The position numbers and the translations under genes were made by a program. A stretch of DNA of 7,167 nucleotides from Candidatus Wukongarchaeum yapensis (GTDB lineage Archaea > Asgardarchaeota > Wukongarchaeia > Wukongarchaeales > Wukongarchaeaceae): NCBI GenBank assembly GCA_016840425.1, contig JAEOSI010000118.1:1-7167 (forward strand), in the 5' to 3' direction. Positions 735 through 4,811 of this stretch are shown here, one piece after another (the stretch's first letter is position 1; each line of letters begins with the position of its first letter). The notes under the pieces were generated by a model, which was not told the origin of the DNA, did no database searches, and was given only the letters and a program-made list of their open reading frames with translations.

Positions 735-1346
735 ATGGACAAAGTCAAGGAAGAAAGAGGAGAAGAGAAAGAAGAAAAAAAGGAGAAGAAGGAAGGAGAA
801 AAAATAAAGGTTGAACTGCTACAAGACAGGGCTATTGTTTGGGATACCAACTCTGCACGCAAACTTTATGCAGAAGGTTATTTCGGAAAACCCCTAGGCA
901 TACGAAAACCAAAAGGCACAGAATTCGACCGCCCCCTAGAGCTAAGCCTTTTCGAGACCCTTTACCTAGCAGAAAAAGGGAAAATAGAGGTTTTAGACAG
1001 TGTTTCAGGCCTACCCATCAAAATAGAAGAATTGAAAAAGCAAAGCAAAAAAAGCCACGATCTATTCCTAGACAAATACACAGTCTACAAAGACCTAAGA
1101 GAAAAAGGCTACGTAGTCAGACCAGGTTTAAAGTTCGGAACACACTTTGCAGTATACGAAAAAGGACCAGGGATCGACCACGCTCCCTTTCTAACCGAAG
1201 TAACACCCAAAGGAACCTCCCTCTTTCCTATCTCATTAGTGAGGGCAGGAAGACTAGCAACAACAGTCCGAAAACGTTACGTAACCGCGATAATCTCCCC
1301 CACAGGAGAAGTAAAATACCTCGTCTTCTCGTGGTACAAACCGTGA
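735..1346 (+). CDS. endA: tRNA-intron (splicing) endonuclease, catalytic alpha subunit
   Basis: Motifs 'LELSLFETLYL' and 'YTVYKDLREKGYVVRPGLKFGTHFAVY'. Catalytic triad intact: Tyr141 (AVY), His149 (DHA), Lys180 (VRK). Charged E/K-rich N-terminal extension. Confidence 0.95.
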   Translation: MDKVKEERGEEKEEKKEKKEGEKIKVELLQDRAIVWDTNSARKLYAEGYFGKPLGIRKPKGTEFDRPLELSLFETLYLAEKGKIEVLDSVSGLPIKIEELKKQSKKSHDLFLDKYTVYKDLREKGYVVRPGLKFGTHFAVYEKGPGIDHAPFLTEVTPKGTSLFPISLVRAGRLATTVRKRYVTAIISPTGEVKYLVFSWYKP

Positions 1347-1980: not shown

Positions 1981-2065
1981 AAAACAAGTCTAATTAAAAA
2001 TTAAACCAAAAACCTACCTTATCTTTTTTTTTAAAAGACCATTAGAGAACAGTATTTTTACAGTC

Positions 2066-2093
2066 TTTTTTATGGTTAAAAGACCATAAAAAA
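2066..2093. repeat. perfect 11-bp inverted repeat (terminator-like hairpin or operator)
   Basis: TTTTTTATGGT-TAAAAG-ACCATAAAAAA, located between the Cys-rich gene and the KaiC-like gene. Confidence 0.55.
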
Positions 2094-2212
2094 ATAAAAA
2101 TTAAAAGTTCCAAAATATATATAGTAGAAGTTTAAAAATCTAAAAGCAGATGTTATCTTTTTAATTCTACAAAACTTAAAGTTTTCAATTTTTTATAAAA
2201 ATCCTATGGAAG

Positions 2213-2959
2213 GTGAAAATTTTGAAGTCTACTTTTGAAAGCGCAAAGCTAGGTATTCCCCTCCTAGATGAGTCTTTAGGCGGAGGAATTCCAAGAGGAT
2301 CCCTCGTATTAATAGAAGACGAGTTGGGTTATAATGCCAATATACTCCTTACAAAATTCCTAGTGGAGGGTCTGCAACAAGGTGAATACGGGTTTATTTT
2401 AAGCGTAGATCATCCCCAAGAATATCATTTTGCCCAGATAAGCAAGCTTGCAATGAATCCAGAAACCCTAATAGAAACAGGCAGACTCATCTACATAGAC
2501 GCCTTCTCCTCACCCCGTGGCGGATACCACGACCCAAAAAGAGTCTCAAAAGAGAGAATATCAGACCTCAGCAATCTTTTCGAGGTAAACGAAACAATCC
2601 GCCGCACCCTACTGCACGTTAGCGAATCACTCGCTGTACGCGGAATCATAGACAGTTTTTCAACAATGCTAAATCTTTCAGATTCCCTAAAATCCTCTAT
2701 CTTCTTCTTACAAAACCGTTCAGCTTTAGACAAATCAAGATTAAGCACAACCTTTATGCTAGTACACGCAGATGCCCACGACCCCTACACGCTAAAAGCC
2801 TTAGAACACTTAGCAGACGGCGTAATAACCATAAAAGGAAAAAGTGCAAGCTCATCCCAAGCCATACTAAGAATAGCAAAAATGCGCGATATAGACTATT
2901 CAAGAGAACTCTTCAACTTCGAATGGTACAAAGGAAAACTAACAATGACAAAATTATAA
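2213..2959 (+). CDS. KaiC/RAD55 (RecA-superfamily) ATPase-like protein with degenerate Walker A
   Basis: 'LGIPLLDESLGGGIPRGSLVLI', Walker-B-like 'RGIIDSFS', 'LEHLADGVI' and 'LRIAKMR' are all typical of the family. The P-loop reads EDELGYNAN, with no GKT/S. The true start may be TTG 2222, since GGAAGGTGA overlaps the GTG. Confidence 0.85.
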   Translation: MKILKSTFESAKLGIPLLDESLGGGIPRGSLVLIEDELGYNANILLTKFLVEGLQQGEYGFILSVDHPQEYHFAQISKLAMNPETLIETGRLIYIDAFSSPRGGYHDPKRVSKERISDLSNLFEVNETIRRTLLHVSESLAVRGIIDSFSTMLNLSDSLKSSIFFLQNRSALDKSRLSTTFMLVHADAHDPYTLKALEHLADGVITIKGKSASSSQAILRIAKMRDIDYSRELFNFEWYKGKLTMTKL

Positions 2960-2991
2960 TCCCCAACCCCAACTCAGAAAATAAAGAGCTA

Positions 2992-3012
2992 CTTCCTCCC
3001 CTTTTTATCTTT
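2992..3012 (+). terminator. pyrimidine/T-rich archaeal terminator candidate
   Basis: CTTCCTCCCCTTTTTATCTTT about 30 nt after the KaiC-like stop codon. Confidence 0.35.
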
Positions 3013-3123
3013 ATGTCGCCAAGAAGATTCTACTCTCAAGATAAGGGATAGCTTCTGATCAATGTCTATTAAGTGCGTTTTTATACGGATACGGAAACAC
3101 TTCCTGTAAAAGCGGGATAATTC

Positions 3124-3212
3124 ACACTTCTCAGTCCTGCGCGGGCAAATCATAAGCGCCTAAAACAGAAAAAATAAACGCTTCAAAACCAAGCCCTCAT
3201 CATTGAAAGTAT
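3124..3212 (-). ncRNA. box C/D 2'-O-methylation guide sRNA
   Basis: Minus strand reads AUACUUUC-A-AUGAUGA (C, 3203-3197), GGGCUUGGUU (guide), UUGA (D', 3186-3183), AGCGUUUA-12 nt loop-UAGGCGCU (8-bp stem), U-AUGAUUU (C', 3153-3147), GCCCGCGCAGGA (guide), CUGA (D, 3134-3131), GAAGUGU. The terminal stem and 3-nt bulges give K-turn geometry at both motifs. Confidence 0.85.
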
Positions 3213-3236
3213 AAAAACATCCCGCTTAAATTCTAA

Positions 3237-3249
3237 TTTAAATCCTTTT
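3237..3249 (-). promoter_or_regulatory. BRE-TATA promoter candidate for the sRNA
   Basis: Minus strand AAAAGGA-TTTAAA, with the first T about 30 nt upstream of 3212. A second TATA-like TATAAA lies at 3260-3255. Confidence 0.5.
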
Positions 3250-3333
3250 AACCTTTTATACATAAAATTTTCTTTCTTTAAAACTCTAAAACTTTTTAAT
3301 CCAATATCTGAATACCATTATCTACCCAAAGAA

Positions 3334-3387: not shown

Positions 3388-3540
3388 ATGTTTATTAACC
3401 CGAGACTAAGGTTTTTTTTCATACTGTTCCTTGCCCTATTGTTCCTTTCTATAGGCATAGTAGTAAACCAATATGACGACATTAAAGAGTATGCTGCATC
3501 ATTTTGTGATTCTTGCACAGCAGGTCTACCAAAACCCTAA
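3388..3540 (+). CDS. 50-aa membrane-anchored CxxC microprotein (CD1871A-like), missing from the ORF track
   Basis: MFINPRLRFFFILFLALLFLSIGIVVNQYDDIKEYAASFCDSCTAGLPKP*. One TM helix and a C-terminal CDSC. GAGGT RBS at 3375-3379. Lies 40 nt upstream of a 4Fe-4S membrane protein gene, the gene order I recall for this family. Confidence 0.85.
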   Translation: MFINPRLRFFFILFLALLFLSIGIVVNQYDDIKEYAASFCDSCTAGLPKP

Positions 3541-3580: not shown

Positions 3581-4525
3581 ATGACACTAAAAGACAAAAT
3601 CTCACCAGAAGAAGTAGCCGCTAGAAGACGAAGAATAAAAACTCTAAGACTCTTTATCCAAATCCTCATTCTCCTCATCATAAACGCTCAAATATTCGGG
3701 GCTGCAGACACAGGGTTTCCCGCCCCCGTACTCTATCCAGCAGGGGCTCCCTACACCGTGATGGTTGGCGCCTACTACGCTTTTGAAAAAACCATGACTT
3801 CGGGCGCTTTACCCTTCCTTGCCCTGGGCGTCATTTTTTTAATCACCGTCGTTTCAGGTCGCGCTTTCTGCGGCTGGGCTTGTCCCTTCGGCCTAGCACA
3901 GGATGTGGTTGGTTACGCTCCAACAAAGAAAAAAAGACCCGACCGCATCATTAACAAAGACTTGCAATTTTTCGCTCAATTATTCCTATTCATAAGCATA
4001 ATCATCGGTCTATACGTTGGCTGGAAAACATACAAAGGAACAGACGCCGACGTAAGGGAAGGTTTAGGCGTGTTCTCAGACGCACCTTTTGCAGTATACT
4101 CCCCCGCAGCAACCCTTTTCGCCACAATACCCTACATGATCGGCTGGTACCCTGATTATGACGACCCCATAGCCTTCACCGATTTCGGCATACTCTTCTG
4201 GCTAAGATTATTATTCCTTATAGCAATCCTATACACAGTAGCATACGTCCCCCGCGCCTTCTGCCGATGGTTCTGCCCTCTGGGCCTAATCATGGGAGAA
4301 TGCGGAAAATACAGCCTAATAGGCCTATCAAGAAACCCCGCAAGATGTGATAAGTGCGGAGACTGCGAAAAGGTATGCCCCATGGGGGTTAGAATCCTCG
4401 ACTACCCTTATGAAAGGATCTCAGACCCCTACTGTATCCTCTGTATGGACTGTGTAGCAGCATGCCCAAAAGACGCCCTAGAAATAACCTTCAACATCCC
4501 AAAAAAGAGCTCTGAAAAGAAATAA
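3581..4525 (+). CDS. 4Fe-4S binding membrane protein, NapH/MauN/YccM family
   Basis: Several TM helices, 'GRAFCGWACPFG' and 'FCRWFCPLG', plus two ferredoxin motifs CDKCGDCEKVCP and CILCMDCVAACP. GAGGT RBS upstream. Confidence 0.92.
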   Translation: MTLKDKISPEEVAARRRRIKTLRLFIQILILLIINAQIFGAADTGFPAPVLYPAGAPYTVMVGAYYAFEKTMTSGALPFLALGVIFLITVVSGRAFCGWACPFGLAQDVVGYAPTKKKRPDRIINKDLQFFAQLFLFISIIIGLYVGWKTYKGTDADVREGLGVFSDAPFAVYSPAATLFATIPYMIGWYPDYDDPIAFTDFGILFWLRLLFLIAILYTVAYVPRAFCRWFCPLGLIMGECGKYSLIGLSRNPARCDKCGDCEKVCPMGVRILDYPYERISDPYCILCMDCVAACPKDALEITFNIPKKSSEKK

Positions 4526-4556
4526 AAAATGCATCAAAAAATAACTTCTATACAAC

Positions 4557-4811
4557 CTATTTTTCTTCTTCTTTTTCTTCGTCCTCTTCTTTTATCGCCC
4601 TATTTTCGCCCCACCTATGTTCGTTTATCTTCAACCAGTTTTCCTCAATTTTAGGAGGTCTTATAAGAAACAAAGGATCTAGGGAAGTTATATCCTCAAT
4701 AATATTCTCCTTTTTTTCTTTTTTACGCTTTCTAACTTCAACAAAAGCTATAAGTAACCCATCGTCTTCCCCTATCTGTCTTATAACAATCTCTTGGACC
4801 GGGAAACTCAA
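4557..4811 (-). CDS. small hypothetical protein (84 aa, TTG start)
   Basis: GGAGTG RBS-like motif 8 nt upstream of the TTG, a TATA box upstream, an acidic C-terminal tail, and no overlap with + strand genes. No family recognised. Confidence 0.5.
   Translation of the reverse strand: MSFPVQEIVIRQIGEDDGLLIAFVEVRKRKKEKKENIIEDITSLDPLFLIRPPKIEENWLKINEHRWGENRAIKEEDEEKEEEK

Follow-up and report, generated by a model that had tools for sequence, protein, structure and literature searches.

We propose that the minus strand at 3212-3124 of the window (the whole 7,167-nt stretch of DNA analysed here, contig C113 of G000, a 92%-complete, low-GC (38%) archaeal MAG of 2.16 Mb) carries the gene of a dual-guide box C/D sRNA of an Asgard archaeon, transcribed independently and aimed at tRNA-Leu; we give this reading a probability of about 0.8. 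The anatomy of the sequence, its conservation, its complementarity to leucine tRNAs and the conservation of that complementarity across genera point to a transcript that would assemble into an RNP and would methylate its target. Judged on its sequence, the RNA of this locus is a real, previously unannotated archaeal box C/D guide sRNA of an ordinary RNA class, which most likely directs ribose methylation of leucine tRNAs. It is modestly unusual in four respects: its internal K-turn is closed by a hairpin, its terminal stem is long and composite, both of its guides are predicted to act on one tRNA, and we found no precedent for its predicted site.

L7Ae, Nop5 and fibrillarin bind box C/D sRNAs, and 2'-O-methylation is directed to the nucleotide opposite the fifth nucleotide upstream of box D or D' (N+5). 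From 3212 to 3124 on the minus strand the order is terminal stem, C, guide, D', hairpin, C', guide, D, terminal stem, and the boxes C (AUGAUGA, 3197..3203) and D (CUGA, 3131..3134), closed by a terminal stem, read exactly as the sequence-only reading had reported. The 5' arm of that stem, AUACUUUC (3205..3212), is the canonical stem of the C/D K-turn; an unpaired A (3204) lies between it and box C, and GAAGUGU (3124..3130) forms the 3' arm. The D' guide, GGGCUUGGUU (10 nt, 3187..3196), is followed by box D' (UUGA, 3183..3186), which is read from the sequence and from the orthologue alignment. A hairpin at 3155..3182, the canonical stem of the internal C'/D' K-turn, then joins D' to C' through 8 bp and a 12-nt, U-rich loop, as had been described (5' arm AGCGUUUA, 3182-3175; loop, 3174-3163; 3' arm UAGGCGCU, 3162-3155). 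Box C' (AUGAUUU, 3147..3153), with an invariant UGAU core and two variable last nucleotides, precedes the 12-nt D guide GCCCGCGCAGGA (3135..3146).

Both box pairs have, by sequence, the K-turn layout that had been claimed for them: next to a canonical stem comes a bulge of 3 nt whose last nucleotide is U, followed by tandem G.A/A.G pairs and a U.U. The bulges are AAU in C/D, where the stem reads ...UUUC/GAAG..., and UAU in C'/D', where the bulge overlaps box C' as (A)UGAUUU; the C'/D' boxes, UUGA and UGAUUU, are degenerate beyond the G.A core. The guides are GC-rich in AT-rich DNA, again as first noticed (60% and 75% GC, against 32-40% locally), and their lengths of 10 nt and 12 nt lie inside the 10-12-nt range of archaeal guides (PMC7994747), the D' guide at its low end, a point against the reading. 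All sequence-level features that define a dual-guide RNA are present, and the genome encodes Nop5, fibrillarin and L7Ae, which supports the proposed box C/D identity. Two further features extend the original description: a 6-bp outer stem, in which CGGGAU (3219..3224) pairs with AUCCCG (3113..3118), its 5' arm being separated from terminal-stem arm AUACUUUC by a short internal loop; and a U4 run (3111-3108), so that the stretch read on the minus strand is 3225-3108. As a side observation, in the protein-free MFE fold the guides partly pair with one another (3196-3187 with 3146-3143, minus strand; GGGC with GCCC), and such guide-guide pairing could hold the naked RNA closed before RNP assembly.

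The sRNA is antisense to both flanking genes and so needs its own promoter. A TATA about 30 nt upstream had been noted, and a TATA-like box, TTAAAAGG (3244..3251, minus strand), which aligns with TATAAAAG in both orthologues, indeed ends at 3244, 31 nt before the terminal stem (3212) and some 19 nt upstream of the outer stem (3224). The usual archaeal spacing between TATA box and start would place initiation near 3221-3223. A second A/T-rich box, ATTTAAAT (3236..3243, minus strand), is an alternative TATA, with a start near 3213; its counterparts in the orthologues, ATTTAGAT and ATTTAGAC, are less TATA-like. After the outer stem, the U4 run (3108..3111, minus strand), kept in all three orthologues, is a candidate archaeal terminator; both transcript ends are predicted ones. 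Among the public sequencing runs listed for the locus none was of RNA, and the contigs obtained were DNA contigs.

A KaiC-like gene lies on one side of the sRNA and small-CxxC/ferredoxin genes on the other, and the order is the same, again antisense, in the metagenome contig SMTZ1_10006693 (SMTZ1), which supplies the third orthologue. Elsewhere in the genome, Nop5 and fibrillarin are adjacent, in an operon, on contig C172 (fibrillarin 321 bits, Nop 228 bits), and L7Ae is on C125 (90.7 bits). Some observations on the neighbourhood are recorded in their own right. The KaiC-like ATPase (2213-2959, plus strand) also matches PAXNEB (Elp4 family) and may be an archaeal Elp4/6-like RecA-fold protein. 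At 3388-3540 (plus strand) a 50-aa membrane peptide with a C-terminal CDSC motif is predicted; directly downstream is a NapH-like polyferredoxin (3581-4525, plus strand) with Fer4_5 and dicluster domains, and the pair is syntenic in the SMTZ1 contig. A tRNA-splicing endonuclease gene with the N- and C-terminal domains of Pfam tRNA_int_endo (735-1346, plus strand) lies about 2 kb from the sRNA; the proximity is probably coincidence, although relevant to intron-rich tRNAs. Between a 123-aa ORF and the KaiC-like gene there is a strong A/U-rich double hairpin (2038-2094, minus strand), which has sub-threshold Rfam matches only (pntA, mir-4677) and may be terminator-like. A 54-aa ORF at 2989-3153 was rejected as coding: it stops after 10 codons in G001, the sole congeneric genome compared (87%-complete), and is frameshifted in SMTZ1.

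Such an arrangement of boxes is rare by chance. A four-box regular expression finds this single site in the whole 2.16-Mb genome, while the site counts in ten genomes shuffled by a dinucleotide-Markov procedure were 0, 0, 0, 0, 0, 0, 0, 0, 0 and 1 (about 0.1 per genome), none in the ten with a terminal stem of at least 4 bp. The 118-nt RNA that includes the outer stem has a fold z of -4.45 here and of -4.77 in G001. Archaeal C/D sRNA families are usually lineage-specific; for this reason no Rfam match was expected, and the cmscan of the window that had been proposed as a check gave nothing overlapping 3100-3230 with Rfam covariance models at E up to 10. A weak sR52-like Rfam match at 4532-4589 was rejected, as the boxes are absent. 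Three whole-genome searches for further C/D sRNAs showed no enrichment over shuffles: the strict four-box regular expression; C/D boxes with a stem of at least 5 bp; and UGAUGA-N10-13-NUGA half-mers with 9-mer complementarity to rRNA.

Box conservation in relatives had been posed as a test, and boxes C, D' and D are kept in G001 while the flanks diverge: the element is about 93% identical there, amid much more diverged intergenic DNA, and C' differs in its last two nucleotides only. The same three boxes are invariant in SMTZ1. Among variants on Logan contigs, from other sediment metagenomes, changes avoid boxes C, D' and D and the D' guide, which has no variant in G001 or in the Logan contigs; its identity in SMTZ1 is by construction, because that contig was found through an exact match to the D' guide. 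In the D guide, variation is confined to the unpaired k1 and to k8, which faces the sole C/U-polymorphic position of the three target sites. Covariation, the other proposed check, is seen as pair swaps in the outer and terminal stems among orthologues, the outermost outer-stem pair being C-G here, U-A in G001 and U-G in SMTZ1. In the internal hairpin, changes among orthologues are U-G to C-G and U-G to U-A, but pair 2 of this stem is mismatched in two of the three orthologues, which counts against it. Model R1, built from the three close orthologues, found no match outside the genus among 150 Asgard genomes, and exact-pattern scans of metagenome and genome collections returned, beyond true orthologues, chance or coding matches in bacteria and Bathyarchaeota.

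A pattern of C', D guide and D, followed by a covariance model, recovered orthologues in other Asgard genera: one in G075 of family f7 (L042:1463-1528), one in G008 of family f8 (L041:1417-1478) and one in each of four genomes of genus g7 (L055, L056, L063, L059). All six align with the window's RNA along their whole length (alignment A5). Across the nine sequences of the family the terminal stem keeps its four innermost pairs, two of which show swaps of C-G to U-A. These RNAs differ from those of the window's genus in being 60-70 nt long, with a 4-8-nt K-loop spacer where the latter have the 28-nt hairpin, a 12-nt rather than a 10-nt D' guide, and a UGAUGA-type C' box; box C reads AUGARGA in them. 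In the window's genus C' is UGAUUU and D' is UUGA. As a side observation, the four g7 sequences (L055, L056, L063, L059) have a terminal D box of CUCGA or CUUGA, with one extra nucleotide inside CUGA, and a box C of UGAUGAAG or UGAUGAGG, apparently a variant of the terminal K-turn peculiar to this lineage.

In each of these organisms the D guide pairs with the native tRNA-Leu at the site seen in the window's genus, and N+5 is again that G: G008 has 10 Watson-Crick pairs, G075 has 12 paired positions and g7 has 8-9 Watson-Crick pairs plus wobbles. The D' guides of G075 and g7 cover the same D-arm stretch as the window's, with 7-8 Watson-Crick pairs. Against the main reading, the N+5 nucleotide of D' differs by genus: it is C11 or C12 in G075 and g7, but in the window's genus, whose D' guide is two nucleotides shorter, it is nucleotide 13 (N13), where most isoacceptors form a wobble. 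The window's sRNA belongs to a small family that spans at least four Asgard genera and is aimed at tRNA-Leu.

In this genome ARAGORN reports 4 tRNAs when intron mode is off and 18 when it is on. Inserts hide most tRNA-Leu genes from it and from the Rfam tRNA model; 33 tRNA candidates were therefore gathered through complementarity of T arm and acceptor. Removal of the D-loop inserts in silico confirmed tRNA-Leu(CAG) on C70 and tRNA-Leu(UAG) on C268. Five tRNA-Leu genes were seen in all (C70:3988-4090(-), C268:11131-11243(-), C123:15076-15207(-) and those on C189 and C89; L033, L040, L037, L039, L035), all with non-canonical inserts of 16-28 nt: in CAG and UAG these lie in the D loop, and in GAG, UAA and CAA they lie in the variable arm and anticodon loop.

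With tRNA-Leu(CAG) (G000:C70:3988-4090(-)) the D guide forms 10 contiguous Watson-Crick pairs (k2-k11) and one G.U, and with tRNA-Leu(UAG) and (GAG) nine Watson-Crick pairs and two G.U. The duplex lies across the variable-arm/T-stem junction, where it takes in the variable arm's 3' strand and the T stem's 5' strand, and it places N+5 on a G two nucleotides 5' of the T stem, in a Watson-Crick C:G pair. The D' guide pairs at all 10 positions with nucleotides 9-17a, in the D arm, of these leucine tRNAs, tRNA-Leu(CAG) among them, through 7 Watson-Crick and 3 G.U pairs. Shuffled guides reach a run of at least 10 on the tRNA set with a probability of 0.015, and a D' guide fully paired in the same tRNA with a probability of 0.013, giving a joint value of about 2-5e-4. 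Against this, k8 in G001 is an A facing a C in its tRNA-Leu(CAG), an A.C mismatch that leaves 6 + 3 Watson-Crick pairs; one complete target-type gene (CAG) was recovered from G001, that for UAG not being found and that for GAG being cut by a contig end. The sequence-only reading gave no targets, and the best-supported target is tRNA-Leu rather than rRNA. Matches to the guide complements elsewhere in the genome fell in coding sequence and were rejected as targets; of three matches to TGCTGCGTGGGC, the two on C181 fall in sequence that codes for HEAT repeats and the one on C198 in apparently non-tRNA sequence.

The two guides differ at N+5. Methylation reportedly requires a Watson-Crick pair there, and in Pyrobaculum guide interactions that are conserved yet do not methylate have been documented (PMC6009581). 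The D guide has such a pair; the D' guide has it only with tRNA-Leu(CAA), where nucleotide 13 forms A-U, and makes a G.U there in four of the five isoacceptors. From the reported need for this N+5 pair and the known non-methylating contacts (PMC6009581) we take D to be the conserved methylation guide and D' a tether: the D' arm is more likely a second tether, or a folding clamp, than a methylation guide. The same facts, together with tRNA-Leu genes whose unusual D-loop and variable-arm inserts require processing, would also suit an RNA that guides no methylation but binds L7Ae, perhaps with Nop5 and fibrillarin, through its K-turns, as a folding or processing chaperone of tRNA-Leu, as an orphan or as a regulatory antisense. 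We think this improbable, since the D guide keeps its Watson-Crick C:G at N+5 in all genera examined the box-to-box spacing is the canonical 12 nt, and the sRNA strand has no ORF or UTR downstream, the 54-aa ORF being stopped after 10 codons in G001.

Slightly less probable still is a real target in 23S rRNA, with the D guide directed to LSU G1746 (own numbering), which aligns near E. coli 1593 in domain III, and the D' guide at LSU 1702-1711. Two nearby rRNA sites are a common pattern of archaeal double guides, and here nine contiguous Watson-Crick pairs adjoin box D at LSU 1742-1750 (near E. coli 1589-1597), with the best D' match to rRNA (8 Watson-Crick, 1 G.U and 1 mismatch) 40 nt away. 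Shuffled guides, however, reach at least 9 bp in about 10% of trials; the G001 LSU is identical there, yet the change in its guide gives an A.C mismatch; k10 and k11 are mismatched to the LSU site but invariant; and the D' match contains a mismatch, with a wobble at N+5. The guides of the other-genus orthologues, moreover, track tRNA-Leu. We therefore rejected the 9-bp match at LSU 1742-1750 as a chance-level one that is unsupported in G001. That the locus is no gene at all, being a chance arrangement of motifs or acting at the DNA level, for example as a protein-binding site, is very unlikely: the absent Rfam match (E up to 10) and the lack of enrichment of canonical UGAUGA-N10-13-CUGA half-mers in the genome would fit it, but only about 0.1 sites are expected per genome, the shuffled sites lack the stem, and the conserved island amid diverged flanks, the compensatory changes in stems and the orthologues in four genera with guides fitting their own tRNA-Leu all argue against it.

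Returning to a methylation guide for tRNA-Leu, we propose the following course of events. A primary transcript of about 105-118 nt, with the outer stem, would yield a mature core of about 90 nt. L7Ae would bind two K-turns, the terminal C/D and the internal C'/D', the latter with the 8-bp hairpin as its canonical stem, and a Nop5 dimer with two fibrillarins would next assemble on the RNA. The 12-nt D guide would bind the CUN-reading leucine tRNAs (anticodons CAG, UAG and GAG) and so bring fibrillarin to the G that lies two nucleotides 5' of the T stem; this would be G47 if the last three nucleotides of the variable region, U-G-C, are numbered 46-48. Meanwhile the 10-nt D' guide would pair with nucleotides 9-17a in the D arm of these tRNAs. 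A large review of thermophile tRNA modification (PMC6313347) does not contain the terms 'position 47', 'Gm47', 'Um47' or 'position 13', and on that basis we describe the predicted sites as ones for which we found no experimental precedent.

The nearest known systems are archaeal dual-guide C/D sRNAs that act on tRNAs; among the examples in Pyrobaculum, sR46, sR61, sR123 and sR126 have both guides on one tRNA, and Pae sR64 targets G51 in the T stem (PMC6009581). The window's sRNA shares with these the boxes C, D', C' and D, guides of 10-12 nt, the N+5 rule and, presumably, L7Ae, Nop5 and fibrillarin, as well as a tRNA target and a D guide that covers the 5' strand of the T stem. The placing of both guides on one tRNA, rare in Pyrobaculum, is predicted here. 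Unlike these sRNAs, it has an 8-bp hairpin with a 12-nt loop closing C'/D' where they have a K-loop of 3-9 nt, and a predicted site in the variable region of a class II tRNA-Leu; sequence similarity and an Rfam family are absent, and the host is no hyperthermophile but a low-GC (38%) Asgard archaeon.

The length of the D'-C' stem-loop had been singled out as unusual, rightly so, given spacers of 4-8 nt in K-loops of all six orthologues of other Asgard genera. The 28-nt hairpin occurs only in G000, G001 and the SMTZ1 contig, and is therefore a lineage-restricted insertion. Archaeal C'/D' motifs fold as an internal k-turn or k-loop (PMC8413462), so that an internal K-turn at C'/D' is a known archaeal option, here unusually long. 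[quoted passage not shown] The window's RNA resembles the former in an internal C'/D' with an intact stem I and tandem G.A pairs, and the latter in being a C/D guide on a leucine tRNA; it differs from eukaryotic snoRNAs in its archaeal size, symmetric canonical boxes and guide spacing. We considered whether a Snu13-like L7Ae, unable to bind K-loops, forces the stem-closed C'/D', and rejected this: loop 9 of the host protein (L025:1411-1791) is G-I-D-V-P-A-A, of archaeal type, and not V-S-R-P...I, the mark of a Snu13-type loop 9 (PMC8413462), and the protein scores 149 bits as archaeal L7Ae against 82 bits as 15.5K/Snu13. Since loop 9 is of archaeal type, the stem is not needed for the eukaryotic reason.

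A bolder combination of these elements is possible, though we hold it only tentatively and think it on the whole doubtful: a new Asgard Gm, a D' clamp with a chaperone role, and a hairpin in place of the K-loop. The D guide may direct a 2'-O-methylguanosine, so far undescribed and conserved in Asgard archaea, within the variable region of those leucine tRNAs that read CUN codons. Precursors of tRNA-Leu have, in these genomes, non-canonical introns in D loop and variable arm, and the D' arm may be a non-methylating clamp on the D arm, making the RNP a folding or processing chaperone for these precursors. The hairpin, which in the window's genus would have replaced the K-loop, could alter RNP architecture (mono-RNP versus di-RNP, for example) or recruit an extra factor, and may be a naturally occurring archaeal step on the way to the stem-closed C'/D' seen in some eukaryotic snoRNAs.

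The practical value of the finding lies mainly in annotation, with a modest evolutionary data point, because the RNA class is a textbook one. The literature that we searched contained no published C/D sRNA catalogue for Asgard archaea, and this work adds to the group a curated, target-assigned C/D sRNA family, from which a specific and testable ribose methylation of tRNA-Leu is predicted. The K-loop and hairpin-closed orthologues also form a natural pair for the effect of C'/D' architecture on archaeal sRNP assembly, a question that bears on how eukaryotic snoRNPs became asymmetric.
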